Shown here one piece after another: positions 13,289 to 64,000 of a stretch of 64,000 nt of DNA; position 1 is the stretch's first letter; each line of letters begins with the position of its first letter. The stretch covers positions 22,477 to 86,476 of the forward strand of contig JACZKE010000063.1 of assembly GCA_014860225.1 (NCBI GenBank), read 5' to 3'. This DNA comes from Desulfuromonadales bacterium. GTDB taxonomy: Bacteria; Desulfobacterota; Desulfuromonadia; Desulfuromonadales; BM103. Below the pieces are notes generated by a model. That model was not told where the DNA came from. It searched no databases and saw only the letters and a list, made by a program, of their open reading frames with translations. The position numbers were made by a program, and so were the translations under genes.

Positions 13289-13467
13289 CTTGCGGAATTG
13301 AAGCAAAACGAAGAGGATGAAAAACTTACGCAAAGACGTAAAGTATAACCCTTTTGTTTTGCTCGCAGTGTTACTGGCGCATTCTCTCAAGTTTAAGGCG
13401 ACATTACATTGAATCTTTATGCTTTTTTGTTTGAGGCGCTTTTCCATAAACTTAAAGGAGAGAACCA

Positions 13468-14556: not shown

Positions 14557-14625
14557 GGGTAAACTGTCCAGACAGACATTTTTCACCCCTGTTGGCTCAG
14601 GGGCATACACCAGAAGGAGATTGCC

Positions 14626-15012
14626 ATGGAATTCCCTGAAGAACTGAAGTACACAGAAGAACATGAATGGGTCATGGTCGAGGAAGAGCTGGCCGTGATC
14701 GGGATCACCGATTTTGCTCAGGACTCACTTGGTGATGTGGTTTTTGTTGAGCTTCCCGAGGTCGGTACATTCCTGGAGGCTGGCAAGGCCTTTGGCGTCG
14801 TGGAATCGGTGAAAGCGGTCTCCGATATCTATGCACCGATCTCCGGTACCGTTGAAGAGATCAATGATGATCTTGTCGACGCCCCTGAGATTATCAATAC
14901 GTCTCCTTACGAGGACGGCTGGATGATCAAGATTCGTATGGCTGATGCCGGCGACGCTGATAACCTCATGGATGCTGAAGCATATCAGGCCCTGATCGCA
15001 GAGGAGAGCTGA
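14626..15012 (+). CDS. gcvH: glycine cleavage system protein H
   Basis: 128 aa; lipoyl-Lys motif ..VESVKAVSDIYAP.. Confidence 0.95.
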   Translation: MEFPEELKYTEEHEWVMVEEELAVIGITDFAQDSLGDVVFVELPEVGTFLEAGKAFGVVESVKAVSDIYAPISGTVEEINDDLVDAPEIINTSPYEDGWMIKIRMADAGDADNLMDAEAYQALIAEES

Positions 15013-15017
15013 GGACC

Positions 15018-17824: not shown

Positions 17825-17852
17825 CGCGAAGAGGTAAGATAGAAAAGAGAAT

Positions 17853-17890
17853 GGGGACGATCTATACAGGTCGTCCCCGTTTCGTTTCGG
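17853..17890. terminator. terminator between convergent gcvPB and tonB
   Basis: GGGGACGA-10 nt-TCGTCCCC stem followed by GTTTCGTTTC. Confidence 0.6.
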
Positions 17891-17911
17891 ACCTGCAATC
17901 CAGACACGCCT

Positions 17912-18832
17912 TTAGTAAATCTTCCCGGGTGGACGCCGATACGATCGTGTGCTGACGCCGCTGAGATGGTACTGGAAGAAGGCCATGATCTTCAGGTCTT
18001 CATGGGGGTAAGCGCGTGGCAGCGGTCCGTAGGTGGCCCCTTTGCGAACAGCGCGCATTGCCTCGTCATCAAGAGCTCGATGGCCGGAACTTTCCAGCAG
18101 TTGGACATCGGTGACATCCCCTTTGCGATCGATCGTAATACGAAGCAGGCAGGTGCCCTGTTGCTGGCTTTGGGCCGCTGCCTCCGGATAGTTCCAAACC
18201 AGGTAAATATTGTCGCGGAAACGCTTCATGAACGAGTGCAGCAGGTCTTGTTGGGCGTCCATCCAGACCGTGTCACCTCTGGTGATGTCCTCACGGTATT
18301 TGCGCCGCCAGTCGGTTTCGATCCGCGCCAGCGTGTCAGGCGAAATCTGGGTGAGGGTTTGTAAATCGGGTGTCTTGGGAGTCGGTTTCAACTCGGGTTT
18401 GGCCATCCAGCCTTCGGGGGTCACTACTGAAGGTTTGGTCGGATCAGCCTTTTGCGGTACAGCCTCGGTGCGGGGTTTCGGCTGTTCCTGTGGCGGTGGC
18501 GGTGTTTCGCGAACCGGTTCCGGAGCTCGGGCCATTTTCTCGCGGTCCTCGGTATCCTCCCCTACGGGTGCCATCTCCTTTTCGACCACCTGGTCCTTCT
18601 CTGCCAGTCGCTTGGCCGGTTCCTGGCGTGGTTTTTCAAGCTCTTTGCGGATTGGCAGGTCGAGTTCGCGTTCACGCAGTTGTGGTGGACGTACCTCTAC
18701 ATAAACCGGTTCCGGAGTATTTTCCGTCGGAAACAGCTGATGCTTCGGTACCAGCAGCAGGAGCAGGTGCAGAAGAAGCGACAGTAGAATGAACCCGGTT
18801 ACAATGCGATTTTGACGTTGTTCTGCAGTCAT
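17912..18832 (-). CDS. TonB-family energy transducer
   Basis: N-terminal TM helix, Pro/Glu/Lys-rich linker, C-terminal TonB_C-like domain (..GTCLLRITIDRKGDVTDVQLLESSGHRALDDEA..). Confidence 0.7.
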   Translation of the reverse strand: MTAEQRQNRIVTGFILLSLLLHLLLLLVPKHQLFPTENTPEPVYVEVRPPQLRERELDLPIRKELEKPRQEPAKRLAEKDQVVEKEMAPVGEDTEDREKMARAPEPVRETPPPPQEQPKPRTEAVPQKADPTKPSVVTPEGWMAKPELKPTPKTPDLQTLTQISPDTLARIETDWRRKYREDITRGDTVWMDAQQDLLHSFMKRFRDNIYLVWNYPEAAAQSQQQGTCLLRITIDRKGDVTDVQLLESSGHRALDDEAMRAVRKGATYGPLPRAYPHEDLKIMAFFQYHLSGVSTRSYRRPPGKIY

Positions 18833-19008
18833 GTCTCCCCAGTTTGTTAATTTTTCATTATATTACAACTATGCTATCCACTGCCAGTGTGGAATGGGCA
18901 GGACCTGCCTCCTGGTACAATGCGAAAAACAATGGGAAAAAAGTTGACGATGCAGAGGCCGTCCGGTATATTTTTCAGTCTTTAATAAAACTTAGTGTGA
19001 AGGAGGAC

Positions 19009-20016
19009 ATGGCAATGCATCTTGTTGACCAGATCAAAACAAAAGCACGCACCAGCATCCAGACCGTGGTGCTTCCCGAAAGTTATGATGATCGCATGAT
19101 TCAAGCGGCTGAGTTGATTGTCAAAGACAGTCTGGCGAGAGTCGTTCTGCTTGGCAATGCGTCTGCTCTTGAAGCCAAGGCAGGCGAACTGGGTGTTTCA
19201 TTGGCCGGTGTGGAACTCATCGATCCGGCAAGTGCAACACAGCTTGATGATTATACAGCTGAGTTGGTGAAACTTCGTGAAAAGAAGGGGATGACGGCCG
19301 AGCAGGCCCGTGAAGTTCTCACTGGTGATGACAACCTGTTCTTCGGCGCCATGATGGTACGTAAAGGAGACGCCGGAGGCATGGTCGCCGGTGCCTTCAA
19401 CACTACGGGTGATGTTCTGCGTGCCGCCTTCCAGGTCATTGGCACTGCTCCGGGAATAAAGACCGTGTCATCGGTGTTCCTGATGGTGACCAGGAATCCT
19501 GACTTTGGTGAGAATGGCGTTCTCTGTTTCGCCGACTGTGCCGTAAATCCGAATCCGAATGCTCAGGCCCTGGCCGAAATTGCCATATCGACGGCCAGCA
19601 GCTGCAAGAGCTTTTTGGGGGTTGACGCCCGCGTGGCCATGCTGTCTTTCTCAACCAAGGGCAGTGCAAGCCATGAAGATTGCGACAAAGTCCTCGAGGC
19701 TCTCGAGATTGCCAGGAAGCTCGATCCGAACCTGCAAATCGATGGCGAATTGCAGGCAGACGCCGCATTGCTGCCCAAGGTCGGTGAAAAGAAGGCTCCC
19801 GGTTCTGCTGTCGCCGGCAGAGCCAATACCTTGATTTTCCCTGATCTTGATGCCGGTAATATCGGCTACAAACTGGTTGAGCGTGTTGCCGGTGCCGAAG
19901 CTGTCGGCCCGATCATACAGGGGCTCGCAAAGCCGGTGAATGACCTTTCCCGTGGCTGTTCCGTTGATGACATTGTCTCTGTTGCGGCGATTACAGCCGT
20001 TCAGGCACAGGGGTAA
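19009..20016 (+). CDS. pta: phosphate acetyltransferase (short form)
   Basis: Start at MAMHLVDQIK.. after GAAGGAGG (ATG 19015 equally possible); ..VVLPESYDDRMIQAAE.., ..LIFPDLDAGNIGYK.. Confidence 0.9.
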   Translation: MAMHLVDQIKTKARTSIQTVVLPESYDDRMIQAAELIVKDSLARVVLLGNASALEAKAGELGVSLAGVELIDPASATQLDDYTAELVKLREKKGMTAEQAREVLTGDDNLFFGAMMVRKGDAGGMVAGAFNTTGDVLRAAFQVIGTAPGIKTVSSVFLMVTRNPDFGENGVLCFADCAVNPNPNAQALAEIAISTASSCKSFLGVDARVAMLSFSTKGSASHEDCDKVLEALEIARKLDPNLQIDGELQADAALLPKVGEKKAPGSAVAGRANTLIFPDLDAGNIGYKLVERVAGAEAVGPIIQGLAKPVNDLSRGCSVDDIVSVAAITAVQAQG

Positions 20017-20052
20017 TGATGCAACTCTGAGGCATGACAAGTTCATAAAACT

Positions 20053-20090
20053 AAAAGACGTCCGGGAAATCAATCTGCCGGACGTCTTTT
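20053..20090. terminator. bidirectional terminator between pta and ackA
   Basis: AAAAGACGTCCGG-12 nt-CCGGACGTCTTTT, perfect 13-bp arms with A/T tracts on both sides. Confidence 0.75.
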
Positions 20091-20117
20091 AGTTTGACTA
20101 ACCTGATGACGGAAGAA

Positions 20118-21386
20118 TTACTTACGTTGGAAGTCCATCGATGAAAAGCTGTACTTGAAGTTCATGTGGTCGGTGTAAGTGCCTTCCATAATTGCAGCAA
20201 CGTCCTCGGTGAAGACCAGCTCCTCATCGGTTGGAATGACGAAAACCTTAACCGGAGAATCGGGGGTGGTAACCACACTCTCCTCCTTGCGGGTCATGGT
20301 GTTGCGATTCTTCTCCTTGTCGAGAATGATCCCCATAAACTCCAGGCCCTCTACTGCTTTTTCGCGAATCTGCCATCCCATCTCACCAACGCCGGCAGTG
20401 AATACGACGGCATCAATTCCGCCGGTAACGGCAGCGTAAGAGCCAATGTATTTCTTCAGGCGATAGGCCTCGACATCAAGTGCCAGTTGGCAGCGTGGGC
20501 AGCCATCTTCCTCGGCTCCTTCAATGACATCACGGCGGTCGGTGAATTTACCGGTAATACCCAATATCCCTGATTTCTTGTTGAGGACACTGTCGATCTC
20601 TTTGGGAGAGAGTCCTTCCTGTTCCATGATAAAAGCAGGAATAGCCGGGTCGATATCGCCGCAACGTGTGCCCATGACAGCTCCTTCTAGAGGAGTCAGT
20701 CCCATGGAAGTATCTATCGATATGCCATTTTTAATGGCCGTGTGTGAGACGCCGTTGCCAATATGCATGGTAATGATGTTGCACTCTTTCGGATCCTTGC
20801 CGAGCATGACCGCAGCTCGCTTGGATACGTAGAGATGGCTGGTGCCGTGAAAACCATAGCGCCTTACGCCGTACTTTTCATACCATTCGTAAGGCAGAGG
20901 GTAAGTATAGGCTTGCTCCGGCATGGTCTGATGGAATGCCGTATCGAAAATCGCAACGTGTGGCACATCAGGGAGAACTGACTGAGCCGCTTCTATGCCG
21001 GAAATGTTAGGCGGGTTGTGCAATGGAGCCAGATGCTGGACCTTTTTGATGGCATCCAGGACAGCATCGTCGATCCGTACCGAGCAGGTGAATTTCTCCC
21101 CGCCATGAACCACCCTGTGACCAACCGCAGAGATCTGGGTAATTTCCTTGACGACTCCATATTCCTTGTCGGCCAGAATTTTGATGATCAGGTGAATAGC
21201 GACCCTGTGATCAGGGCATTCATATTCTTCACGATAGGTTTCACGGCCGGGGACTTCGTGGATAATGAAAGAGTCGCCGATAGTGACGCGCTCGACCATG
21301 CCCTTGGCGATGACTTCCTTCTTCTCCCAATCGTAGAGCTGGTACTTTACCGATGAACTGCCGCAGTTGAGTGCCAGGATATCCAT
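20118..21386 (-). CDS. ackA: acetate kinase
   Basis: 422 aa; MDILALNCGSSSVKYQLY.., ..GFHGTSH.., ..VFTAGVGE.. Confidence 0.95.
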   Translation of the reverse strand: MDILALNCGSSSVKYQLYDWEKKEVIAKGMVERVTIGDSFIIHEVPGRETYREEYECPDHRVAIHLIIKILADKEYGVVKEITQISAVGHRVVHGGEKFTCSVRIDDAVLDAIKKVQHLAPLHNPPNISGIEAAQSVLPDVPHVAIFDTAFHQTMPEQAYTYPLPYEWYEKYGVRRYGFHGTSHLYVSKRAAVMLGKDPKECNIITMHIGNGVSHTAIKNGISIDTSMGLTPLEGAVMGTRCGDIDPAIPAFIMEQEGLSPKEIDSVLNKKSGILGITGKFTDRRDVIEGAEEDGCPRCQLALDVEAYRLKKYIGSYAAVTGGIDAVVFTAGVGEMGWQIREKAVEGLEFMGIILDKEKNRNTMTRKEESVVTTPDSPVKVFVIPTDEELVFTEDVAAIMEGTYTDHMNFKYSFSSMDFQRK

Positions 21387-24401: not shown

Positions 24402-24542
24402 AATCCGGATATTCTATAGCAAAGCGACTGATTTATGTCAATTTTTTAGCGGCATGAAGTTCCATGCCTGACGCTGAGATATCCTATGATATAATAGCCG
24501 GCAGAATAACGTCCCCTAATGGCTGATATCAGGAGAAGCACG

Positions 24543-25229
24543 ATGCGAACCACTCTCTATCAAACCGTAATCATTCTTGTCTGCCTGTCTGTTTCTCCGG
24601 CTTTTGCTGCGCCAAATTTGCAGGTTGACAATCCGAAATACGATTTTGGCGAAGTCTTTCAGGGGGAAAAAGTCCTCCATGTCTTTGAGTTTGTCAATGA
24701 AGGCGATGAAACGCTGACGATTGACCGGGTTCGAAGCTCCTGTGGCTGTACTGCCGCCCTGGTATCGGAAAGAAATATCCCTCCAGGAGGTAAAGGGGAG
24801 TTGCAGGCCAACTTTGACAGCACCCGTTTCCGTGATGCCGTATCAAAAACGATCTCACTTTACAGCAATGACCCGGTGCGTCCGATCGTGCAGTTGCAGA
24901 TCAAGGGCAAGGTCCTCGAAACCGTCGCTGTGTTGCCACCTCAGATCAATTTCGGCAAGGTTGTTGCGCAAAAACCTGTCATTTCAACTGTTTTGCTGCG
25001 CAATCAGGGTGGGAAGTCTTTGAAACTTGGCAAGCCACATTCCACCGCTGCCGAATTGGTCGTCAAAATTTCTGAAGCTGCTTTTGCAGATGGAGATGAA
25101 GTGACCCTGGAGTTACAATTGACGCCCAAGCCTGGCCAGGTGCGCTTCAGTGGTTATGTAATTGTGCCGGTTGATGGAGTCCCGAAAAACGAGCTGCGCA
25201 TACCTGTTTATGCAACTATCAGCGACTAG
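24543..25229 (+). CDS. DUF1573 domain protein (two copies), secreted
   Basis: Start at ATG 24543 after AGGAGA; signal peptide; ..YDFGEVFQGEKVLHVFEFVNEGDETLTIDRVRSSCGCT.. DUF1573 signature. Confidence 0.7.
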   Translation: MRTTLYQTVIILVCLSVSPAFAAPNLQVDNPKYDFGEVFQGEKVLHVFEFVNEGDETLTIDRVRSSCGCTAALVSERNIPPGGKGELQANFDSTRFRDAVSKTISLYSNDPVRPIVQLQIKGKVLETVAVLPPQINFGKVVAQKPVISTVLLRNQGGKSLKLGKPHSTAAELVVKISEAAFADGDEVTLELQLTPKPGQVRFSGYVIVPVDGVPKNELRIPVYATISD

Positions 25230-25398: not shown

Positions 25399-25830
25399 AT
25401 GACAACTCATGTTGCGCCACCACAGCGGCGAAAATTTCTCATCACCATGCTCGGTGGGCTTGGCGCTTTGATCGCTGCAGCCTCGGTCTGGCCGGTTTTT
25501 CGTTTTCTCTCACCTGTGGATACCGGCGGCAGTAGTAATCAGGTTTTTTTGGCGCGTGACGTTGTGGCTCCAGGGAAAGCACATTTTTTCCAGTATCAGG
25601 GCAAGCCCGCAGTCATCCTGCAACCAACACCCGGCAACTTCGTGGCGTTGTCAGCGGTCTGCACCCACCTTGGATGTGTTGTCGCCTGGCAGGAGCAGGC
25701 CGGAGAATTTCTGTGCCCCTGCCACGCTGGTCGATTTTCTGCAGATGGCCAGGTCCTTGGCGGACCGCCACCCAAACCTCTTGAATCTCTTGTCGTTCAG
25801 CTTGATGGCGACCAGCTCAAAATCGGATAG
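25399..25830 (+). CDS. Rieske [2Fe-2S] subunit with Tat signal
   Basis: RRKFL twin-Arg motif; CTHLGC..17 aa..CPCHAG Rieske boxes. Confidence 0.85.
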   Translation: MTTHVAPPQRRKFLITMLGGLGALIAAASVWPVFRFLSPVDTGGSSNQVFLARDVVAPGKAHFFQYQGKPAVILQPTPGNFVALSAVCTHLGCVVAWQEQAGEFLCPCHAGRFSADGQVLGGPPPKPLESLVVQLDGDQLKIG

Positions 25831-25839
25831 GAGAATTTT

Positions 25840-26940
25840 ATGCAACCGATAAAATGGCTGGTCGAGTTCGTCGAAGTCCGCCTGGGGGTAAAGGAGCTTT
25901 ACAACAGGGAACTGAAAGGTTACCTGCTGCCACGCAATGTCAATGCCTGGTACACTCTCGGCGCGGTCCTCCTGGCACTTTTCACGCTGCAGACTCTCAC
26001 CGGTATCCTGTTACTGATGTTTTATGTCCCCGATGCCGCAAAAGCCTTTGCCAGTGTCCAGTACATCGTAAACGAGGTGCCTTTCGGCTGGCTGTTCCGC
26101 ATGCTGCATGCCATCGGTGCCAATGTTATTGTGATTGCCCTGCTACTGCATATGCTGTCGGTGCTGTTCATGGCCAGCTATAAAGGACGGCGCGAATTCA
26201 CCTGGCTGTCAGGTTTCATCATCTTCAACCTGACCATGGGCATCTGCCTGACCGGTTATCTGCTACCCTGGAGTCAGCTCTCATTCTGGGCGACCACCGT
26301 CGCTACCGATGCAGCCGGCGCTATCCCCATCGTCGGTGATTATCTGGTTGAATTCCTGCGCGGCGGACCCACCGTCGGCAACCAGACGCTGGGGCGTTTC
26401 TTCGCTCTGCACGTCGTCGGTATGCCTCTGGTTCTGCTCGCACTGATCGGAGCACATCTCTTTTGTGTGAAACGTCGCGGCATTTCACCACCACCTTTTG
26501 GCCCTGAGTATCATGCAACTGAGGCCAAACCGTTCTTTGAACATGAGAAGCATCCCGGGGGTGTCCCGTTCTTCCCGAACTATTTCGTCAAGGATGCAGC
26601 TATAATCTGTTTCTTCATCGCTTTTCTGCTCGCAATTATCTTTTATGCCCCGGGCCTGTTCTTCCCTGATTCGGCCTTTCAGCCGGCGGACCCGTTCCTG
26701 ACGCCGCCGCACATCAAGCCGGAATGGTACTTCCTCTGGGCATACCAGGCACTGAAGATCTTCCCCAGTGAAATTATCGGATTGGGAGTGCAGGGGGCGT
26801 TCATGACGTTCCTGGCTTTGCTGCCGTTTATTGACAGAGGACCGGAACGGCGCCCGGCGAAACGGCCATTGTTTGTAACCTGCTACGTTCTCGGGATCCT
26901 CCTGATTGTGGCGATTTCCATCTGGGGGCATTACTCATGA
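25840..26940 (+). CDS. cytochrome b (b6 + subunit IV fused)
   Basis: 366 aa, multi-TM; ..WYTLGAVLL.., ..FRMLHAIGAN.., ..FFALHV.., ..PEWYFLWAYQ.. cytochrome b motifs. Confidence 0.85.
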   Translation: MQPIKWLVEFVEVRLGVKELYNRELKGYLLPRNVNAWYTLGAVLLALFTLQTLTGILLLMFYVPDAAKAFASVQYIVNEVPFGWLFRMLHAIGANVIVIALLLHMLSVLFMASYKGRREFTWLSGFIIFNLTMGICLTGYLLPWSQLSFWATTVATDAAGAIPIVGDYLVEFLRGGPTVGNQTLGRFFALHVVGMPLVLLALIGAHLFCVKRRGISPPPFGPEYHATEAKPFFEHEKHPGGVPFFPNYFVKDAAIICFFIAFLLAIIFYAPGLFFPDSAFQPADPFLTPPHIKPEWYFLWAYQALKIFPSEIIGLGVQGAFMTFLALLPFIDRGPERRPAKRPLFVTCYVLGILLIVAISIWGHYS

Positions 26941-27743
26941 GTCGCTTGGTCTGTTCTCTGTTTGTTGTGATACTTGCCGCCTGGTGGTCTATGCCTGCTT
27001 CACTGCTGGCTGCTGATACTGTCTGCATTCAATGCCATGGCGGCCTCGAAGGCCGTCTCGGTGAACCAGTTGCCCAATGGCAAACAAGCGTTCATGCTGA
27101 GAACGGTATCTCCTGTCATGATTGTCATGGAGGTGATCCAGCCGACTCGGCCATGGCTATGAGTCCGGAGCGTGGTTTTATAGGTGTGCCGGATTATGTC
27201 GATGTCCCCGACTTTTGTGGCCGTTGCCATGTCGGGGTTGCTGAGGAGTATAAGGCCGGCGCTCATGGTCAGGCGATTGAGAATGGAGGAGCGCAATGCG
27301 TTGTCTGCCATGGTAACCATGCTATCGAGAAGGCAACCCTGGAACTGATTAATGAAGAAGACTGTTCGCAATGCCACACTTATGAACGTGCAGCTCTGAT
27401 CAGAATGTCGCTGGTCGAGACCGACAAGGTGATCACGACAGTCGAGCACGACCTTGAGCGATTGTACCGTCTCGGATTTGCCGTTGACGATATGCAGGGA
27501 GAACTGTTCAACCAGCGCAACCGCTTCCACCGGATCTTTCACGGTGTAGATGTCGAGAGAGTTCGTCGGGAAACAGCAGATGTAGAAGGCGAACTGGGTA
27601 AAATCGTCAAGCAGGTTGTCTCTATGGATTCCACGCTGAGCCAGCGTAAACTCTGGGGAAGCGTCGTGATCGGCCTTTTTGTTCTGGCCGGTGTAGTCTT
27701 CCTGCTGCTGCGAAAAGCCTACGAAGAAGAAGAGAAAAGTTGA
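26937..27743 (+). CDS. pentaheme c-type cytochrome with C-terminal TM anchor
   Basis: Five CxxCH motifs (CIQCH, CHDCH, CGRCH, CVVCH, CSQCH); signal peptide; ATGA overlap with cytochrome b. Confidence 0.8.
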   Translation: MSRLVCSLFVVILAAWWSMPASLLAADTVCIQCHGGLEGRLGEPVAQWQTSVHAENGISCHDCHGGDPADSAMAMSPERGFIGVPDYVDVPDFCGRCHVGVAEEYKAGAHGQAIENGGAQCVVCHGNHAIEKATLELINEEDCSQCHTYERAALIRMSLVETDKVITTVEHDLERLYRLGFAVDDMQGELFNQRNRFHRIFHGVDVERVRRETADVEGELGKIVKQVVSMDSTLSQRKLWGSVVIGLFVLAGVVFLLLRKAYEEEEKS

Positions 27744-27933
27744 TGTGAAATATAGAGTAATAAACAAGGGGCATTGCAAAGCAGGATTCAGCGCCTTCGG
27801 TGTTTAGGGAGTCGAAGATTATCAGAATAAGTCGCGACGACTTAATAATAATCAGGCATATGGCTCACATGGAAAGTATGATCGTGGAGCGTTGATTGGC
27901 CTGGCAACCATCTTGATGCACTTTGATTAGCGG

Positions 27934-27962
27934 TTGCAAAAGCCCGTGAAGTGGGTTATAAA
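27934..27962 (+). promoter_or_regulatory. putative sigma70 promoter of tRNA-Arg
   Basis: TTGCAA, 17-nt spacer, TATAAA; ends 11 nt before the tRNA 5' end. Confidence 0.45.
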
Positions 27963-27973
27963 GCAACCCCTGT

Positions 27974-28050
<77 letters not shown>

Positions 28051-28058
28051 ATAATTTC

Positions 28059-28096
28059 AAGAGGTTGGTCGACTTTTTCGGCTAGCCTCTTTTTTG
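28059..28096 (+). terminator. terminator after tRNA-Arg
   Basis: AAGAGGTTGGTCG...CGGCTAGCCTCTT stem (with G-U pairs) followed by TTTTTG. Confidence 0.5.
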
Positions 28097-28729
28097 TTGA
28101 ATCTCTAGGGTTCTCTAGGGGTTCCGTTCAATAGAAAAAACCGCCTGTGGGGGGTTCTTTCCTTGCTGCTTTCTTTTGGCCCCGTTTCTGAATTTGACAC
28201 GATTCGGCTACCGTGCTGTGCTCTTGCTGTTTTGATTTGGGGGGAGGGGGGGTGTTTTTCTGTGCGGGGAGCATGCATGGGAGGAAAGGCCTGGGTCCCA
28301 TACTCCCTCATGTAATGCAGTCGTAAATATTGCAGTAAAAAATTTCTGAAAAGTTGTCAAGTGAAAGACAGTAAGGGACTTGACCTTTAATCGAATCAAA
28401 CCCCTTGAGTGTATCTCAAAACTCTATAAAGAATCCCTGTGCCAGGATCATTTTGTTCGAGACCAGTACGGTTCACCAGTACATACGATATGGGCAGTGG
28501 GAAGATTGCTTGGAAATTAAGTGTGTTAAAAATCCTAAGGTGATCTGAGAACCAGTTGCTGGAATACTTATAGGACAGCCACTACCCCGGACGTAAGAGA
28601 GGGCCACACTTTGCTGGAAATCGTGATAAATAAGAAAACATGGCCTGACACAATAGCCCACATTGCCTGTCGGCTACTCAGACCTCAGGATGCCAATATG
28701 TGTTTTTGTGCTGAGATATGAGCCCTCCG

Positions 28730-29560
28730 TCAGGACTTGATTTTATTCTTAATGATTTTGTGAATTGCAAGACTCAAAAGGGTCAACAATCCGAACACAG
28801 TAACGATTGAGGCTCCCGTCGGCAGGTCCCTGGAAAATGACAGGTACAGTCCGATGATGCTCCCGAAAAACCCCAACACCCATCCCACAATGAGCCTGGT
28901 GGCATGTCGGTCACAAAACAGCACGGCGCAGACCGCCGGAACCACCAGATAGGTAAAGACCAGCAAGACTCCCGCTATCCTGACCGAGCTGGTGACCACC
29001 AGACCAAACGTCGCATAAAAGACGAAGTCCCAGAGCCAGATTTTCCAACCGTTTTGCCGGGCCTGTTGGAGATTTGTCGAGATCGTAAAAAAACGGTGTC
29101 GGCAGAAGAAATGGATGATGGCGACGCCCAGATAAATCCAGAAGGTCTTCCATACCTCCGGCCAATCGGTAAACAGTATATTGCCCAGAAGCATGGCTTT
29201 GACCTCTTCCGTGCCATGGGGAGACTGGTCGAGGATGAGGACCGCCGCCGCCGACGCCACTGCATAGGTGATGCCGATGATGGCTTCCTGGGGAACCCGC
29301 TCATCCCGGAAGCGCGCAACAGCGAAGACCGTCGCACCCAGAAAGGCAAAACCGAGGGAAAAGACATAACCTCCCGTGCCATGAAGATCATAACCGACGA
29401 GCATGCCAACGGCTCCGCCCAGGGCGGCTACCTGGGCGAGGGCGAGGTCGACGAAAATGACACCACGGGAGACGACATGCAGTCCCAAGTAGCAGTGGAT
29501 GCCTGCCAGGATGAGGCAGACTACGAACGGGGCGGCAAACAGATGCAGGAGATCAGTCAT
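28730..29560 (-). CDS. metal (Zn/Mn-type) ABC transporter permease
   Basis: Start at MTDLLHLFAAPFV..; multi-TM ZnuB/TroC-like protein; start overlaps the stop of the upstream binding-protein gene. Confidence 0.8.
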   Translation of the reverse strand: MTDLLHLFAAPFVVCLILAGIHCYLGLHVVSRGVIFVDLALAQVAALGGAVGMLVGYDLHGTGGYVFSLGFAFLGATVFAVARFRDERVPQEAIIGITYAVASAAAVLILDQSPHGTEEVKAMLLGNILFTDWPEVWKTFWIYLGVAIIHFFCRHRFFTISTNLQQARQNGWKIWLWDFVFYATFGLVVTSSVRIAGVLLVFTYLVVPAVCAVLFCDRHATRLIVGWVLGFFGSIIGLYLSFSRDLPTGASIVTVFGLLTLLSLAIHKIIKNKIKS

Positions 29561-30590
29561 AAGCGTTTGCCAACTTAAACACGACATCGTGGATCGCAGC
29601 GAGGTAGTCGTAGGGTCCTTCACTGGGAGAAAAGGACGTCGCCGCCTGCACGATGTTGACACCCGTTTTACCGGCAATCGCTAATGTTGCCTGTTGATTG
29701 ATCCAGGGCTCCACCAACAGCACCTTGATCTGTTCGGCCTTGATGGTCTGAATCACCTGCAACAGGTGCCCCGGACCAGGCGGGATTCCCGGTTTTGGTT
29801 CCAGGTGCTCGGCGACCAGAAAACCAAACCGATTGGCGAAGTAGGGCCAGCTCTTGTGATAGGTCACGATTTTTGACCCATAATGTGGAGCCAACCTGCC
29901 AAGCCAGCCGGCCAGAAGAGCCCGGTCACCCTGTTGTTCGAGAAATTCCGTCAACTTGCCATGCTGGTGCAGCAGCACCAGTTTTTCGAAATCGTACTTG
30001 GTCGCCAAGGCGACACCGACCATCGCCACCCCAAGGCGCTGTCGGAACTGTTCGTAGCTTTCGGCGAAGTCAAGTGCGTCGCCCGGCTGCAAATCCGACA
30101 TGCGGTCACGCAGCAGCGCTGCCACCTTGAGACCATTGAGGGGATCCGCCAAGTAGTGTGGGTTACCTTGGGGATGGACATCCCCCATGCTCCGGTCCAC
30201 GGTCCCAGTCGGGATGTCGAGCGGCATGATAACTTGTGAAGCGTCAACGAAGCCCGGCTTGCCAGGCTGAATGCGGCTGTTGCGGGAGCTGCGCAGAAGC
30301 AGCGGCGCCCAGGCCGTCTCCAGATCGAGGCCGACCTGGACAAACATATCAGCCTCGCTGAGCTCCTTGATAAAACTGGGACGCGCTTCGAGATAATGCG
30401 GATCTTCAGTCCCTTTGGCAAACACCGTCAGCTTGACCAGGTCACCGCCAATGGCCTTTGCCAGGCCGCCCAGTTCCGGAACGGTGGCGCAAACCTTGAG
30501 TGTCCCGGCCTGGATAACTCCAGGAAACAATATCCCGACGATCAGCAGAACCAGGCAATATCCATGTACCCATTTTGGCAGGAAGTTCAT
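29553..30590 (-). CDS. metal ABC transporter substrate-binding protein (ZnuA/TroA-like)
   Basis: 345 aa; signal peptide; ..EDPHYLEARPS.., ..GDVHPQGNPHYLADP.. cluster-9 SBP motifs; GGAGG SD. Confidence 0.8.
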   Translation of the reverse strand: MNFLPKWVHGYCLVLLIVGILFPGVIQAGTLKVCATVPELGGLAKAIGGDLVKLTVFAKGTEDPHYLEARPSFIKELSEADMFVQVGLDLETAWAPLLLRSSRNSRIQPGKPGFVDASQVIMPLDIPTGTVDRSMGDVHPQGNPHYLADPLNGLKVAALLRDRMSDLQPGDALDFAESYEQFRQRLGVAMVGVALATKYDFEKLVLLHQHGKLTEFLEQQGDRALLAGWLGRLAPHYGSKIVTYHKSWPYFANRFGFLVAEHLEPKPGIPPGPGHLLQVIQTIKAEQIKVLLVEPWINQQATLAIAGKTGVNIVQAATSFSPSEGPYDYLAAIHDVVFKLANAYD

Positions 30591-30602
30591 AATGACCTCC
30601 TG

Positions 30603-32129
30603 TCAATACGTGTGTGCAGGATGGGCACCGATCAGGACTTCCAATCCGAGCCAAACCGAGTGTGCCGGGTCGTCCAGATGGTCGGCTTCGTCGTAATTGT
30701 ATTGCAGGCGAATTCGGGTGAATTCCGACGGGCTGAAGATGACCAGGGGAGAGATCCGCGTCCGGTCATTACGGAAGGGGTCGTCGTCGCGTGCCGGGTA
30801 TTCTCCCTCATGTGTGAGATTGTTGCCGCTGCCCGACGCATATTCGTAACGCAAGCCGGTGGCCCAGCGTCCCGGAAAGCCATAGAGGGCCTGGACGTAA
30901 GCGCCCCAGTCCTCCAAGGTATCACTGGGGATCAGTTCACCTTCGTCCTCGTCGAAGAAGGCATCCGCATCCAAATCGCGCTTGGAGATTTCCCCTTCGA
31001 TCCTCAGGAACGGACGGCCCCGTTCATTCTTTTCAGGAACCCATTTGAACAAGGCATCCGCACCGTAGATCCAGGTCTCACCATCAGTGCCGGTAAAGTT
31101 GGGGCCATAAAGACCGGACAGGCCGAACTTGCTGGTCCAGGTCGATGAAAGAGGAATCGCATTCTCCCAGCGGGCCAGGTAGACAAGGTCTCCGAGGTTG
31201 CGGACATCCAGGTCGACCAGCGGCCGGCCGCCGATGCCGAGTTCATGGGCGTGGCCATCTCCCGCAGGTTCCTCGTTGCCGTGGTCATGACTGCTCTCAC
31301 CACCGAGGAAACTGGTCATGAACTCACCATCGGCATTTTGGGCGCCAACGTGAAACACGGAATACCAGGGGACAGGCAGCAGCTTAGACATCCGAACACC
31401 GGCACCACGCATCCCTTCGCCACCAAACAAGCGGGTGTTGACGATCGGCTGGTCGAGCCATACCCATGCGTGGGGATGTGACGGGTTGATCCGGCCGAAC
31501 TCGGTCAGGAAATACCCGGCTTCAAGTTCCAGTCCCCATGGCAACGCAGTGCTCTGGACAAAAGCCTCTTCCAGTTCGACCGTATCTTCCGACGCCAGGA
31601 TGTGGGCCTCAGCCTGGAAATACGGATCGACTGCACCGATCAGAGACAATTCAGCCTGTTGCAAGGTAAAACCACGGCGTTTTGGGTCGTGCCCTCCGCC
31701 CTGGAGAGTCTCCAGCGATTCATCGCGCTCAGACGAAGCCCCAACTGTAGTCAGCACATCTAGAGAAACATCGATCAATCTCAGTCGGGCTGATTTGCCG
31801 AGGTCAATACCGGCTAAATCGCGACTCTCCTCTTTAGTCTCTGCTTCAGGAAGGTTGACGATTGCTGCATCCAGGGCATCCTGCGGACTTTTAGTCGCAG
31901 CAACAGGAGCCGGTGTGACCAATCCATTGGGTTTTCCCTGGTCTTGTTGGAGTTGGCTTCCCAAATCACGGACCCGCTGCTTTAGGAAAGTATTCTCCTG
32001 CTCTAAAGCATCCAACCGCTGGAGGATTGTTTCAATCTGCTCGGAGGAGGCTGCCAGTGCGTTCCCCGATAAAACTATCGGGATCAGCAAACAACTCAAC
32101 ACAAATACACATGTGATAATTCGCGACAT
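30603..32129 (-). CDS. putative outer-membrane beta-barrel protein with N-terminal coiled coil
   Basis: Start at MSRIITCVF.. (signal peptide, AGGAGA SD); coiled coil then alternating beta-strand pattern; C-terminal ..GAHPAHTY aromatic end. Confidence 0.5.
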   Translation of the reverse strand: MSRIITCVFVLSCLLIPIVLSGNALAASSEQIETILQRLDALEQENTFLKQRVRDLGSQLQQDQGKPNGLVTPAPVAATKSPQDALDAAIVNLPEAETKEESRDLAGIDLGKSARLRLIDVSLDVLTTVGASSERDESLETLQGGGHDPKRRGFTLQQAELSLIGAVDPYFQAEAHILASEDTVELEEAFVQSTALPWGLELEAGYFLTEFGRINPSHPHAWVWLDQPIVNTRLFGGEGMRGAGVRMSKLLPVPWYSVFHVGAQNADGEFMTSFLGGESSHDHGNEEPAGDGHAHELGIGGRPLVDLDVRNLGDLVYLARWENAIPLSSTWTSKFGLSGLYGPNFTGTDGETWIYGADALFKWVPEKNERGRPFLRIEGEISKRDLDADAFFDEDEGELIPSDTLEDWGAYVQALYGFPGRWATGLRYEYASGSGNNLTHEGEYPARDDDPFRNDRTRISPLVIFSPSEFTRIRLQYNYDEADHLDDPAHSVWLGLEVLIGAHPAHTY

Positions 32130-32217
32130 GGGAAATCTCCTGTTCAATTCTGACAAGCAACAAACCATATGATCCGGGCATAAACCTGCCCGATATAGTG
32201 AAAGGTGCAGAAATGTG

Positions 32218-32577
32218 TCAGGAGATTATTGGGGGACCTCTTTGAGGAGGGTTCTTCTGGGTGCTACTTGTAAGAAGAATTTTATCGGTTAGCGGATAGA
32301 GGCCAAGAGGCTGGCATTTAAAGACACCATCAACCCCAATGCTGACCAAGCCCGGACTGTATGCCCTCGACAGCATTTGGCAGATGGTACAATCAACAGG
32401 ATGATCCGCAGATTGATGATCAAAGATTGTAAATTCAGTTTGAGTAGACTGTTTATGGTTTTCTGGGGTGGTGGAGCCATGACCGTAGTGCAATGCAGGC
32501 AGCACCAACTGGTAGCTCAAAGCCAGTAGAATCAAGAATGCCTGAAGCTGCTTATTGGTCATGGATTGCAAAAACAT
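32218..32577 (-). CDS. hypothetical small His/Cys-containing exported protein
   Basis: 119-aa ORF with an N-terminal hydrophobic segment; heads the metal-uptake gene string; family uncertain. Confidence 0.3.
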   Translation of the reverse strand: MFLQSMTNKQLQAFLILLALSYQLVLPALHYGHGSTTPENHKQSTQTEFTIFDHQSADHPVDCTICQMLSRAYSPGLVSIGVDGVFKCQPLGLYPLTDKILLTSSTQKNPPQRGPPIIS

Positions 32578-32889
32578 GTTTCATACTATGCCAGTTAAGA
32601 AAAGGTCGTCAAGCGAATAGAAAGTTTTGCACACACGAGATTTTTGGGATTCTTGAATTATGAAATTTAATCTTAATGCGAAAAGACGGCTCAGTCTAAT
32701 CTGGCTGAACCGTCTTATTTGTTATCCTGCATCAATCTAGGAACGAATATTTACTGGGGAGCTATATCTCCTACATACCCTGCCTCTGTGACCGATAAAT
32801 CCCGAAACCGAGACCTCCGGATAACTGTATTGGTAACGGTATATTGTGGGGTGGTGGCCCACATATAATAATTATTCCAGACAAGGAGG

Positions 32890-32903
32890 TTGACTTAGGT
32901 CAA
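32890..32903 (+). promoter_or_regulatory. CRP/FNR-family box (TTGAC-N4-GTCAA) upstream of nrfA
   Basis: Perfect palindrome TTGACTTAGGTCAA; TATTTT hexamer at 32926-32931 fits a class II (-41.5) arrangement. Confidence 0.45.
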
Positions 32904-33027
32904 ATACACCATAGGATTTTACCCGTATTTTCAGTCGAATGCACGGCCTCCGCCATCTCCCCCCGCTGACCCTGCGACCGGAAGGTGTGCTCAACTTTGG
33001 TATTGAGAACTTAAGGAGAATGTACTT

Positions 33028-34518
33028 ATGTCCCGAAAGAGCATTATTCTTGTTGCAATCCTCCTCACAACTGGTGCCTCTTTGTATTTATGGCAGGGCA
33101 ATCTTTCGGCTGCCCCACCCGTCCCGGTAAAAGAGGCGCAAATCGAACCTTTAGACGACCCCGGCGCCATGGAGCAGAAATATCCCAGCCAGTATGCCGG
33201 CTGGAAAGCAACTGCCCAACCGACCGAGTCTGGAAAGAGCCGCTACAAAAGGGGTTATGACAGTGACGGCGTCGTTTATGACAAGATGGATCAATACCCT
33301 TTCCTCGCCCTGCTGCTCAGTGGATCGGGATATGCCCTGGAATTCAACGAACCCCGGGGGCATGCCTACATGATCGAGGACCAACTTGAAGTCGAACCGG
33401 CCCGCCTTAAGGCAGGGGGGTCCTGTCTGACCTGCAAGACCCCCTACGCCCCCCAGTTGCAGGAGAAACTCGGCGATAATTATTTCGGACTTCCTTATAA
33501 AGATGTTCTTAGTCGAATTCCTGAAGAGCACCGCACCCTTGGCGTCACCTGTGGCGACTGCCACGGTACCGATATGGAGCTGCGGATCTCGCGCGCGTTT
33601 ACCTTGGGCAAGGGGCTTGAGGCTCTGGGAAAAAAGCCTGATGAGCTGAAGACGGCCGAGATGCGCACCTTGGTCTGCGCCCAGTGCCATGTCACCTACA
33701 ACATCCCCCAGAATGATAAGCACAAATCAGAGGATGTTGTTTTTCCCTGGCAAGGTAGCGAATGGGGGGACATCTCCGCCGAAAACATCATCAGCAGAAT
33801 TCGAAAGAATGCCCATTTAAACGAATGGACCCAGAACGTTACCGGTTTCCGTCTCGGCTACATTCGACACCCAGAGTTCGAGTTTTTCTCCAACGACAGC
33901 ACCCACTGGCAAGCGGGAGCGGCCTGTGCCGACTGCCACATGCCTGCGACCGAGGTGGACGGCAAGATGATTTCCGACCACCGGGTGATGAGCCCCCTCA
34001 AAAGTGATCTCCGGGGATGCGCCCAATGCCATGAAGACAATGCCGAAACCTTGCGGCAGAAAGTTTTCGTTATTCAGGACCAGACGGTATCGGTCCTGAT
34101 TCGCAGTGGGTATGCCACTGCCGCCGTTGCCAAATTGTTTGAAAAGACTCATGCGGAGCAGAAATCCGGCCTGAAAGTCAACCCCGACCTTTACGCCCAG
34201 GCGCGTGAACACTATGAGGAAGCTTTCTATCGGGTCCTTTTTATGGCCGTGGAGAATTCTGTTGGGTTTCACAACCCAACGGAGGCCTCGCGTATTCTGA
34301 AGGATGCCATGGGTCATGCCGCCACCGCCGACCATCTGCTGCGGCGTGCCCTGGAACAGGCTGGTCTCGAAGTGGCCACCGAAATAGATCTCGAACTGGA
34401 AAAATATCTGAACAATCGGGGTGAAAAGAAGCGCATGTTCCGTCCCGAACATGAAATAAAGGACCCTCTACCGGTGGTCCAGGAGAGTGAAAGGAAATCC
34501 GATTTTCCAGTTCTTTAA
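33028..34518 (+). CDS. nrfA: ammonia-forming pentaheme cytochrome c nitrite reductase
   Basis: 496 aa; diagnostic CxxCK heme (CLTCK) plus four CxxCH (CGDCH, CAQCH, CADCH, CAQCH); N-terminal hydrophobic anchor/signal. Confidence 0.85.
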   Translation: MSRKSIILVAILLTTGASLYLWQGNLSAAPPVPVKEAQIEPLDDPGAMEQKYPSQYAGWKATAQPTESGKSRYKRGYDSDGVVYDKMDQYPFLALLLSGSGYALEFNEPRGHAYMIEDQLEVEPARLKAGGSCLTCKTPYAPQLQEKLGDNYFGLPYKDVLSRIPEEHRTLGVTCGDCHGTDMELRISRAFTLGKGLEALGKKPDELKTAEMRTLVCAQCHVTYNIPQNDKHKSEDVVFPWQGSEWGDISAENIISRIRKNAHLNEWTQNVTGFRLGYIRHPEFEFFSNDSTHWQAGAACADCHMPATEVDGKMISDHRVMSPLKSDLRGCAQCHEDNAETLRQKVFVIQDQTVSVLIRSGYATAAVAKLFEKTHAEQKSGLKVNPDLYAQAREHYEEAFYRVLFMAVENSVGFHNPTEASRILKDAMGHAATADHLLRRALEQAGLEVATEIDLELEKYLNNRGEKKRMFRPEHEIKDPLPVVQESERKSDFPVL

Positions 34519-61446: not shown

Positions 61447-61587
61447 CCCAAAACAATTCAGTAGCATTTATAAGAATCCTATCGTCTTATATGAGGGTTT
61501 GAAAAGGTTCGGCTCTATTCCGGTCCTGATATGAAAATTGGGGGAGGGAGCAGAATTGAAAAAGCCCCAACTGGGGATGGCTGGGGC
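61447..61587 (-). repeat. CR-3 copy 2 (reverse orientation)
   Basis: Reverse complement: GCCCCAGCCATCCCCAGTTGGGGCTTTTTCAATTCTGCTCCCTCCCCCAATTTT...ATAAATGCTACTGAATTGTT. Confidence 0.75.
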
Positions 61588-61623: not shown

Positions 61624-62151
61624 CTAAAGGTTCTTCTTCTCAAAAAAACTGAATAGGAGTAAGCCTGCAATAACAACAATTGCTATGACCACCCAATGAT
61701 TTATTCCAAGTATTCCCGGCAGGGTAATTTTGCCAAAATCACCCCAAGTAAGAACAGTTTGTTTCATGAGAGGGAAAGCCTCTGCGTACACTGCCGCTCC
61801 CACCAGCATTCCGATGATACCCCAGAGAGCATCCCAACGACCTTCTGCAAGCGCTCCGGCTGAGGTGCCTGGACAGTATCCTAGCAAGCCCCATCCGATA
61901 CCGAAGATCAGACCACCAATGATGTTTCCTCCCAATAAAGTTGTTTTGATACTTAGTTTAGCTAGTTCTAGGTCAACCAAAAGATAGATTCCAACCATTC
62001 CCACTAAAACACTTGAAAGCATGAATTTAATGATGGTCATATCTTTGAACAACAGAGCGCCGAGTTGCTTGTCATAGCGTAAGACACGGCCCTTTTGAAG
62101 CAGAAAGCCAAAAGCTATGCCGGTTATCAGACCATAGATGAGCATTTTCAT
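61624..62151 (-). CDS. YeeE/YedE-family (sulfur/selenium transport, DUF395) membrane protein, second half-gene
   Basis: 175 aa, 4-5 TM; ..GWGLLGYCPGTSAG.. conserved Cys motif; ATGA overlap with the upstream half-gene. Confidence 0.75.
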   Translation of the reverse strand: MKMLIYGLITGIAFGFLLQKGRVLRYDKQLGALLFKDMTIIKFMLSSVLVGMVGIYLLVDLELAKLSIKTTLLGGNIIGGLIFGIGWGLLGYCPGTSAGALAEGRWDALWGIIGMLVGAAVYAEAFPLMKQTVLTWGDFGKITLPGILGINHWVVIAIVVIAGLLLFSFFEKKNL

Positions 62152-62678
62152 GGCTTGCTCCTTCTGTAGATGAGGTGGGCAACAAACATGCCGCCGATGA
62201 AGAAGCAGGCCAATGAAACAAAACCACTGATAGCTAGCTGGAGCGAACCGCTCAGCCCGTGACCGCTCGGTCAGCCATCAGCCAGCCTGGCTCCGTACAT
62301 CGCTATGGCACCCCCGGTAAAGGCGAAGACAGCTCTTTTGCCCTGGCTCTTAGATCCGAACCGCTTTTGCCATAGATCGGGTAAACCTTGCCATTTGAAG
62401 CTCTTTGAACTCAGAGCGGCAATTAAAGCCCCGATGAAAATGCCAACCACGAACATCCACTGCCAATCGATCTTCGGGGTGGTTTTTATGAAATACTCCA
62501 TTTGTGCGACTCGTTCGGGAGAGATGAAGTCTTCGAGCAAGCCGACAGTACGAACAAAAGTGGTTGAGGCCCCTAGGAAATGTCCCGCAATCCAGACCGA
62601 GAGAATGGACACGATTCCCGATAGTCCCCCTGCCAGATATGGGCTCCAACCTCCATCATTTGTGGACAAGTCTGCCAT
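62148..62678 (-). CDS. YeeE/YedE-family membrane protein, first half-gene, with in-frame UGA (62273-62271) read as selenocysteine
   Basis: The frame continues through TGA: ..GGAIAMYGARLADG-U-PSGHGLSGSLQLAISGFVSLACFFIGG..RRSKP, ending in an ATGA overlap with the next gene; the UGA sits where the family has GGC(T/A)SGHG. Confidence 0.7.
62237..62256 (-). promoter_or_regulatory. putative bacterial SECIS hairpin for the YeeE-like gene
   Basis: GCUGAGCG-GUU-CGCUC(C)AGC at +18 to +37 from the U of UGA; apical loop GUU. Confidence 0.45.
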
Positions 62679-63115
62679 ATTTTTCTCCTCTCGGATTTCA
62701 GCAGGAATCCGTAGGTGGTCCTTACAGCTTAATCAAGATTAAAGAATTACAATTTCATTGTACGGTAAGATTTGTTGAAAACAAGCATTCAGCGACATTT
62801 CCAAAACACCCCAGTGATAACCTGGAAACAACTCCCAGGAGCAGAGAACAAAAGACTGAAGTGTCTACAATACTGAGGGCGATTCAGTGCACGAGGATAG
62901 CTGCCAATCATTTTTCAATGGTGCCAAGAAAGGTTCAATTATCGTGATAAAATATTAATCAATAATCACCGGTAATTTTTGTGAGGAAAGGGGAGGAGCG
63001 AACAATGGCAGAAGCATTAAAACCCGGATGTAAAAGGCCCACAGGTGGCCCAACAGAAAATATGGCCCCTGAAGTCTCTCAGCAAGACACCGTATCTCCA
63101 AAGGAGGAAAAGAAA

Positions 63116-63730
63116 ATGATTATGGTCGGACAAAAGGCTCCGGACTTTACAGCTCCAGGGTATCTCAATGGCCAATTTGTAGAAGGAAAGCTTTCCGAAT
63201 ATTTTGGTGATGGCAAATGGGCATTGCTTTGTTTTTACCCAGGTGATTTCACATTTGTCTGAGCGACTGAGATTTCAGCAGTTGCTGAAAAATATGCAGA
63301 ATTCCAGAAATTGAACGTCAATGTGGTCTCCATGAGTATTGACAGTATGTTTGTCCACAAGATGTGGAATGATGACGAGTTGAGCAAGATGGTGGAAGGT
63401 GGTGTGCCGTTCCCGATGTTCTCCGATCCTGGCGGAACCATTGGGAAAATGTACGGTGTTTACGATGAGGGCATGGGCGTCGAGACTCGCGGCCGTTTTA
63501 TCATTGATCCGGATGGTAACATTCAGGGTTTCGAGGTGCTCACCCCGTCTGTTGGAAGAAATGTCAGCGAAACCCTGCGACAGATTCAAGCATTACAACT
63601 CGTTCGTGCATCTGATGGAACAGAAGCGACACCATCTGGATGGAAGCCCGGCAAAAAGACCCTTAAACCCGGAGTGAATCTGGTTGGGAATGTCTGGCGA
63701 GAGTGGTCTACAGATATGGCTTTCGATTAA
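63116..63730 (+). CDS. selenocysteine-containing peroxiredoxin (PrxU-like, 1-Sec type); UGA at 63260-63262
   Basis: MIMVGQKAPDFTAPGY...LLCFYPGDFTFV-U-ATEISAVAEKYAEFQKLNVNVVSMSIDS..; canonical FYPxDFTFVCPTE with TGA at the Cys codon; same frame as ORF 63311-63730; AAGGAGG SD. Confidence 0.85.
63273..63290 (+). promoter_or_regulatory. putative bacterial SECIS hairpin for prx
   Basis: UUUCAGC-AGUU-GCUGAAA; loop at +21 to +24 from the U of UGA. Confidence 0.5.
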
Positions 63731-63755: not shown

Positions 63756-64000
63756 ATCGGGTAGGAGGCGGGATTACTCCCGCCGTCCTCCCACACCACC
63801 GTACGTACGGTTCCGTATACGGCGGTTAACGTTAAACGCTGAAAGCGGTGAAACTGGGTCAACAGGGATATCAGACCCAGTTTCCTGAAGTAGGATGTGT
63901 CAAAAGCTTCATTCATGTGCGAGGCTCCTGCATTCCACCAGGGGCCTCGTCCATTTTTGGTGCTTCGTCAGGCTCGTTCCTCTGACAACCCCCGTTGCAT
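63756..64000 (-). mobile_element. 3' end of a group II (class C-like) intron: maturase C-terminus, domain V, domain VI; continues beyond the window
   Basis: Reverse strand: DV CCGCCGUAUACG-GAAC-CGUA(CG)UACGGUGG (63825-63796) has a CGC triad, G-U wobble and 2-nt bulge; DVI GGGAGGAC GGCGGGA-GUAA-UCCCGCC UCCU[A]CCC (63792-63759) has a bulged A 7 nt from the proposed 3' end ..CCCGAU (63756); upstream frame encodes ..GRGPWWNAGASHMNEAFDTSYFRKLGLISLL.. Confidence 0.6.

Follow-up and report, generated by a model that had tools for sequence, protein, structure and literature searches.

A predicted selenocysteine codon at the conserved transport cysteine of a split YeeE/YedE-family protein

Introduction

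The YeeE/YedE family of membrane proteins (PF04143) is listed, with the motif GUxSG (U being selenocysteine, Sec), as a predicted selenoprotein family in Table S3 of Peng et al. (2016, ISME J), who counted five organisms with Sec-containing YeeE/YedE. The family also appears as a selenoprotein family in the reviews of Zhang et al. from 2022 and 2026, both of which give WP_012471001.1 as the example; the 2026 review states the motif as GUxSG and names the family among predicted Sec-containing transporter subunits. The 2008 Global Ocean Sampling (GOS) selenoproteome paper, which the reviews cite for this family, does not name YeeE/YedE in the text and supplements searched. Here we analyze a gene pair of the family in a 64,000-nt stretch of DNA from a Desulfuromonadales bacterium (GenBank assembly GCA_014860225.1, contig JACZKE010000063.1, positions 22,477 to 86,476 of the forward strand; hereafter the window). 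The first gene of the pair, gene A, contains an in-frame TGA at window positions 62273-62271, and gene B follows it. Comparison with homologues indicates that this UGA is very probably a Sec codon, standing where other YeeE/YedE proteins have their conserved transport Cys.

In the crystal structure of Spirochaeta thermophila YeeE (StYeeE), Cys293 lies in a periplasmic indentation and touches bound thiosulfate; complementation is lost in the mutants C91A and C293A and retained in C22A (PMC7449682). The PmpA and PmpB proteins match the C-terminal and N-terminal halves of YeeE in the same gene order as genes A and B, and a heterodimer has been proposed for them (PMC11582611). YeeE/YedE-family transporters have been implicated in thiosulfate, sulfane-sulfur or selenium transport.

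Results

An in-frame TGA in the first gene of a YeeE-type pair

Genes A and B lie on the reverse strand of the window, with the following features:

62148-62678 (-), gene A, PmpA-like half of a split YeeE/YedE-family transporter, matching the C-terminal half of full-length YeeE and predicted to contain Sec (176 codons, U being codon 136), from sequence and translation
62271-62273 (-), in-frame TGA predicted to be read as selenocysteine U136, replacing the Cys of G-C-P-S-G-H-G
LADG-U-PSGHGLSGSLQLA, predicted peptide of the gene A product across the recoded codon
62237-62256 (-), putative selenocysteine insertion sequence (SECIS) hairpin, GCUGAGCG-GUU-CGCUC(C)AGC, +18 to +37 when the U of UGA is numbered 1
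61624-62151 (-), gene B, PmpB-like second half of the transporter, 175 aa, matching the N-terminal half of YeeE
61564-61587 (-), intrinsic-terminator-like hairpin and T run after gene B

The ATG of gene A is at 62678, and GAGGAG lies 7 nt upstream at 62690-62685. Gene A has 135 codons up to the TGA at 62273-62271, its pre-TGA reading ending in ...AIAMYGARLADG (...YGARLADG). The same frame continues for 40 further codons, PSGHGLSGSLQLAISGFVSLACFFIGGMFVAHLIYRRSKP (PSGHGLSG...), and ends at a second TGA (62150-62148), which overlaps the ATG of gene B (62151-62149) as ATGA. The ribosome-binding site of gene B, AAGGAG at 62163-62158, lies within the post-UGA tail of gene A. An earlier note on this DNA, made from the sequence alone, had described a frame that stops after YGARLADG and carries on to an ATGA overlap, and we reproduced that description from sequence and translation. 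Against the Pfam profile PF04143 (Sulf_transp; cut-off 27 bits), gene A scored 81 bits over profile positions 175-309 when U was replaced by C, and gene B scored 52.7 bits over positions 14-152. Given the terminator-like hairpin after gene B, the two genes make up an operon, in which the C-terminal-like half of a YeeE-type transporter is encoded first and the N-terminal-like half second.

The TGA recurs at the position of an invariant cysteine

A protein database search with the readthrough protein returned 4038 homologues at E ≤1e-5, and the best 120 of the 4038 were inspected. Within these 120, all 112 full-length homologues (169-179 aa, 62-78% identity) carry GCPSGHG at the TGA-equivalent site. 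The other eight are the closest relatives (89-100% identity), and every one of them is annotated as a 135-aa protein that ends in ...ARLADG. On the contigs of these relatives, TGA occupies the same codon in eight of eight cases and is followed by an open, conserved tail; the ATGA junction is shared wherever the contig extends that far. The 135-aa entries are P0007, P0010, P0013, P0014, P0015, P0019, P0020 and P0028, on contigs L001-L008, where the 120-nt tail is unannotated.

We also searched a genome set holding a single genome for each prokaryotic species, using peptide patterns chosen to exclude the codon. Among the 80 nearest loci (59-94% identity), the codon is TGA in 72 and TGC or TGT in eight. 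The lineage labels of the TGA form include Desulfuromonadales, Desulfobacterales/Desulfobulbaceae, Syntrophales, Syntrophobacterales, Syntrophorhabdaceae, Desulfomonilaceae, Desulfovibrionales and Nitrospirota, together with metagenome-assembled genomes (MAGs) of Negativicutes and one of Actinomycetota. The Sec-form orthologues labelled outside Thermodesulfobacteriota (L027, the Actinomycetota MAG; L025, a Negativicutes MAG; L050, L059, L061 and L062, Nitrospirota) are 64-72% identical; those in MAGs of other phyla could reflect horizontal transfer or binning errors. Malonomonas rubra DSM 5091, a cultured type strain, has two paralogous Sec-form copies (L012, NZ_FQZT01000018; L013, NZ_FQZT01000011) that are 82-83% identical to the window protein.

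Orthologues do not end at this codon with an unconserved tail, one of two outcomes that the earlier note had named as fatal to its proposal: the post-TGA tail is open for 37-42 codons in 76 of 77 Sec-form loci. The ATGA overlap with gene B is present in 68/77 of these loci. By a rough estimate, a 40-codon open frame would follow a stop by chance with a probability of (61/64)^40 = 0.15, so an open tail alone is not significant; its weight comes from the invariant motif within it, from the 112/112 Cys and from the occurrence of TGA plus open tail in 77 independent loci. Amino acid conservation is also seen downstream of the hairpin. Gene A's own terminator is TGA in 69/77 Sec-form loci; the genetic code is thus the standard one, and the reading of a given TGA depends on its local context.

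A covarying hairpin follows the TGA

The stem-loop that the earlier note had placed at +18 to +37 is present at 62256-62237 exactly as described. It consists of stems of 3 bp and 5 bp separated by a bulged C (62240) and closed by the apical loop GUU (62248-62246), with a folding energy of -11.4 kcal/mol. The interval from the TGA to +50 was aligned for 80 sequences of the TGA form, 70 of them distinct, with positions 18-25 taken as paired with 29-37, C34 as bulged and G26-U27-U28 as the loop. Standard pairing was found in 97.7% of cells of this alignment; sliding the 3′ partner by 1-3 columns as a control gave 24-55%. Pair 18-37 changes from GC to AU in eight distinct sequences and pair 19-36 from CG to UA in 17, and pair 21-33 alternates between GC and GU, with GU in 29 distinct sequences. 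None of 500 shuffles reached the observed covariation score. On a rough neighbor-joining tree built without the hairpin, each of the two Watson-Crick switches requires at least five to six independent events. All of the compensatory changes are synonymous, pairing a Gly third position with a Leu first position, or a Leu first position with a Gln third position.

The codons over the loop and the top of the stem (the region of codons +5 to +11) are frozen, with AGC for Ser in 77/77, GGT for Gly in 73/77 and TCG for Ser in 73/74 loci. Codon entropy is 0-0.3 bits at these three codons versus 1.3-2.3 bits at the codons for Gly, Ala, Leu and Arg on either side. In the closest relatives, hardly any change is seen over the first 34 nt that follow the TGA, the only two variable sites being synonymous and upstream of the hairpin; the 135 codons before the TGA contain 20-63 synonymous differences.

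The hairpin at 62256-62237 satisfies all four published constraints of the consensus bacterial SECIS (bSECIS) model used by bSECISearch, as summarized in PMC13188914. The comparison is as follows:

Apical loop, 3-9 nt in the model: 3 nt (GUU)
Upper stem, 4-16 bp in the model: 5 bp, plus 3 bp under the bulge
G in the first two loop positions, then G or U: G-U
Distance from UGA to loop, 16-37 nt in the model: 22 nt
Minimum free energy, -7.5 kcal/mol or lower in the model: -11.4 kcal/mol

Other folds were considered. RNAalifold applied to the alignment gave three lower-stem pairs only (G21 pairing with C34), plus a mini-helix that covers the UGA, and an alternative fold of 76 nt, which includes sequence upstream of the UGA and pairs the UGA itself, was set aside. 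The local hairpin is preferred because it covaries.

A PrxU-type gene adjoins the pair

PrxU is an experimentally shown selenoprotein in Eubacterium acidaminophilum. A PrxU-type gene, divergent from genes A and B, adjoins them in the window:

63116-63730 (+), PrxU-type peroxiredoxin, with an in-frame TGA at 63260-63262 at the peroxidatic Cys, FYPGDFTFV-U-ATE
63273-63290 (+), SECIS-like hairpin UUUCAGC-AGUU-GCUGAAA, 17 nt after the UGA, -8.0 kcal/mol

The protein matches the NCBIfam equivalog NF040737 (peroxi_PrxU) with 368.8 bits (cut-off 270), and its hairpin also fits the bSECIS model constraints. Open reading frame (ORF) callers break the gene into two pieces. The NCBIfam profile reaches 34 residues N-terminal of the MIMVGQ start, and the true start may be the ATG at 63005. 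PrxU-type genes cut at the same place lie near the YeeE pair at two other loci (L059 and L060). A PrxU gene with a TGA and a hairpin is indirect but good evidence, at the level of sequence, that the organism would decode UGA as Sec; it bears, though only indirectly, on the other outcome that the earlier note had named as fatal, a genome devoid of Sec machinery. In a scan of the window for in-frame TGA candidates, PrxU and the YeeE gene were the only plausible ones.

Two further elements of the window may be noted here. A group II catalytic intron match (Rfam RF00029, 47.9 bits, gathering score 40) lies at 63756-63827 (-), just downstream of PrxU; the window ends at 64000, and any remaining part of an intron would fall outside it. 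At 24519-25229 (+), a DUF1573 (PF07610) protein is encoded by an uninterrupted 236-aa ORF; the PF07610 family (OS_HP2, UxC) is listed among selenoproteins in the 2008 GOS paper.

The predicted Sec maps to the substrate-contacting cysteine of StYeeE

With HMMER, gene A aligns to residues 230-331 of StYeeE (PDB 6LEO and 8J4C), with an E-value of 5e-5 from the single sequence and 8.5e-8 from a 30-sequence profile, and U136 falls on Cys293. Gene B aligns to residues 2-180, placing its Cys93 (GYCPGT) on Cys91; the GYCPGT motif is retained in 63/71 gene B orthologues. The position of StYeeE Cys22 is Leu24 in gene B. By these alignments, the predicted Sec occupies the outward-facing, essential, substrate-contacting position of the YeeE fold.

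The hairpin at 62256-62237, which lies inside the coding sequence, would recruit SelB with Sec-tRNA(Sec) to the UGA at 62273-62271, and the ribosome would read on for 40 codons past it, adding the last transmembrane helix. The A and B halves may then pair as a pseudo-symmetric heterodimer, as proposed for PmpA/PmpB. At the outer entry, a selenolate could capture the incoming chalcogen substrate better than a thiol, perhaps via a transient Se-S bond, and the substrate might be handed from U136 to Cys93 of gene B. With the ribosome-binding site and the start codon of gene B both placed within the post-UGA tail, synthesis of the two halves may be coupled to successful Sec insertion.

Neighborhood of the gene pair

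The immediate neighbors of the pair are MarC, a histidine kinase and PrxU. No YeeD/TsuB (TusA-like) partner was found beside it, and no small neighbor is conserved over the 80 loci (ORFs of at least 70 aa). The window annotation contains no selenium-metabolism gene, including yedF and selD, close to the pair. Across the 80 loci, gene B alone is universal.

About 13 loci of the Syntrophorhabdus/Syntrophus type (L044, L052, L055, L057, L063, L065, L068, L070, L072, L075, L078, L084 and L086) have a flavoprotein disulfide reductase resembling coenzyme A-disulfide reductase (CoADR)/NADH oxidase about 0.6-1 kb downstream of gene B, and most of them also have a cyclic nucleotide monophosphate (cNMP)-binding-domain protein. 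When checked for Sec, the flavoprotein had Cys in 13/13 (SYGACSLPYY). It may hint at sulfane-sulfur or persulfide handling in this lineage; both neighbors are lineage-specific, and we therefore draw no general functional inference from them.

Elsewhere in the window, positions 11781-21386 and 25399-34518 encode MTHFR, the glycine cleavage system (T, H, P1, P2), Pta and AckA, along with a Rieske/cytochrome b complex with a multihaem cytochrome c and an NrfA-type cytochrome c552. As general context, this gene content is that of a Desulfuromonadales-like anaerobe.

Cysteine forms of gene A

Eight loci have the Cys form, and the hairpin is gone from five of them. The three others, all with TGC, keep it, intact in L087 (469-518) and with one or two substitutions in L017 (727-776) and L085 (3406-3455); these three look like recent Sec-to-Cys conversions. 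A Fitch count on a rough tree gives seven Sec/Cys switches for the eight Cys loci. At two hairpin-encoded residues, the dipeptide SL is found in 54% of Cys forms versus 92% of Sec forms.

These observations can be joined into a broader reading, which we offer tentatively and regard as the less probable outcome: in a split-YeeE clade of anaerobes, Sec would be the prevailing and probably ancestral residue at the Cys293 equivalent, the Cys forms would be scattered secondary conversions, the residue would be a nucleophile that forms a covalent intermediate, and assembly would perhaps depend on selenium. The role as nucleophile would follow from selection for a selenolate at this position. If the reading is true, the substrate, be it thiosulfate, polysulfide/sulfane sulfur or a selenium species, would be held transiently in a covalent Se-S (or Se-Se) intermediate, a departure from the hydrogen-bond-guided passage proposed from the StYeeE structure, and the ATGA-coupled second half-gene might tie transporter assembly to selenium supply.

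Discussion

Weighing the assignment

The proposal of the earlier note, that the TGA encodes Sec at the conserved transport Cys, is supported by the Cys of all full-length homologues inspected, by the many UGA-containing orthologues with a conserved downstream frame (eight contigs and 72/80 genomes), by the covarying hairpin and by the adjoining PrxU gene. Several points weigh on the other side. All evidence on Sec in YeeE/YedE, here and in the literature found, is computational, and the literature searched yielded no experimental selenium incorporation (labelling or proteomics) for the family. Pfam annotation of 46 ORFs in the 64-kb window turned up no selA, selB or selD, and no selC was found there, the sole tRNA being a tRNA-Arg. 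The hairpin is mostly invariant, its covariation being limited to three pairs at synonymous codon positions. Rfam gave no SECIS match in a gathering-threshold scan of the whole window or in a permissive scan of 61900-63500 (E up to 10), a result that is uninformative because bacterial SECIS elements are short, gene-specific and poorly covered in Rfam. An AlphaFold2 model of the Cys homologue P0001, from a 30-sequence alignment, had a predicted local distance difference test (pLDDT) score of 63.7 and a predicted template modeling (pTM) score of 0.36, too poor for geometry or for a reliable count of the helices, and a Foldseek search with it against the PDB returned nothing meaningful (best E = 3). 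The poor quality is probably due to the half-transporter having been modeled alone, and the HMMER alignments to 6LEO and 8J4C were used instead. Finally, the substrate and the chemical role of the putative Sec are extrapolated from StYeeE.

The alternative that survives best, though we consider it improbable, is a selenium-independent readthrough, in which a suppressor tRNA, a near-cognate tRNA or a reassigned code would place Cys, Trp or Gly at the UGA and the hairpin would merely slow the ribosome and thereby stimulate readthrough. Downstream structures are known to stimulate stop-codon readthrough in other systems, and the lack of visible Sec machinery in the window would fit. However, the use of TGA as terminator of gene A in most loci indicates the standard code. 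The hairpin has specific bSECIS features, namely a small apical loop beginning with G-U and the 22-nt spacing, and the GGUUC of its loop is frozen as a nucleotide sequence, in keeping with protein recognition rather than mere stability. Moreover, Cys codons are the only alternative to the TGA in homologues, the usual pattern for Sec, and a PrxU-family gene adjoins.

It is very improbable that the TGA is a genuine stop, with a functional 135-aa product and 120 nt of untranslated spacer before gene B. The eight closest database entries are all annotated in this way, and TGA is the usual terminator of gene A and of many other window genes. This reading would leave open why the supposed spacer stays free of stops in nearly all of the divergent loci and encodes the family's most conserved motif (PSGHGLSG) along with the last transmembrane helix; the shortened product would moreover be without the loop that corresponds to the essential region of Cys293 in StYeeE. 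A pseudogene, sequencing error or assembly error in one contig, which would account for a bare internal stop and nothing more, can be dismissed, as the same TGA occurs in an independent identical contig (L003), in seven further metagenome contigs and in 72 genome assemblies of different studies, and the substitutions upstream of it are mostly synonymous.

Significance

Assignment of the UGA as a Sec codon would bear first on annotation. All public gene calls found for the Sec-form protein and its close relatives stop at 135 aa, so the essential loop and the last helix are absent from the databases; recognizing the Sec codon corrects the annotation of a widespread protein in anaerobic Thermodesulfobacteriota, Nitrospirota and other lineages. 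A Sec at the thiosulfate-contacting position of the only solved structures of the family, those of S. thermophila YeeE, would be natural evidence that this residue does chemistry, and the U, C and S variants at the Cys293 equivalent offer transporter researchers a comparison set. The value as a discovery is small; the main worth lies in the annotation correction and in a mechanistic hint for YeeE-family transport.

Comparison with known systems

The earlier note had not been aware of YeeE/YedE as an established selenoprotein family, a view that is out of date, as the GUxSG family stands in published catalogues by computational prediction. With family and motif already catalogued, the selenoprotein family is not new, and the window gene is a correct call of a member of this computationally predicted family. 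The gene shares with the catalogued Sec YeeE/YedE proteins the Pfam family, the Sec site G-[U/C]-x-S-G (here G-U-P-S-G), a single Sec per protein and a prediction by comparative genomics. It differs in that the Sec form is the majority among its nearest species genomes and extends over several labelled phyla. Beyond the catalogue entries, the refinements are this wide spread of the Sec form, the covariation of the SECIS hairpin, the alignment of the Sec site with Cys293, the two-gene architecture with its ATGA coupling and the systematic truncation in gene calls. Relative to the consensus bSECIS model, the hairpin sequence is specific to the YeeE gene family, with no match to an Rfam covariance model.

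YedE/FdhT (TIGR04112/NF033796) belongs to the same superfamily and is likewise linked to selenium biology, but its link is through gene neighborhood, and it is not reported as a selenoprotein in the sources compared. Assignment of the window proteins to this equivalog was rejected, since they score about 31 bits against cut-offs of 200 and 350 and no yedF or selD is nearby.

TsuA/YeeE of E. coli and S. thermophila (6LEO, 8J4C) is of a homologous fold family; the predicted Sec and Cys93 match its indispensable Cys293 and Cys91, and its conserved G-C-x-x-G-H loop motif is present here. Whereas TsuA is a single polypeptide of about 330-350 aa, the window locus is split into two genes for polypeptides of about 175 aa each, and the gene for the C-terminal half precedes the other. 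Sec would replace Cys293, the Cys22 equivalent is a leucine and no YeeD/TsuB-like gene is adjacent. The TsuA equivalog was also rejected, with scores of 51.5 and 55.1 bits for the window proteins against an NCBIfam cut-off of 400.

PmpA/PmpB of Serratia sp. ATCC 39006 resembles the window pair in having adjacent genes, with A as the C-terminal and B as the N-terminal half of YeeE, and one conserved Cys in each, at the equivalents of Cys293 and Cys91. The Pmp proteins are described as having about 130 aa and four transmembrane helices, the central helix being without a counterpart, whereas the halves here are of 175-176 aa. PmpA has Cys at the Cys293 equivalent, the position at which gene A is predicted to carry Sec.

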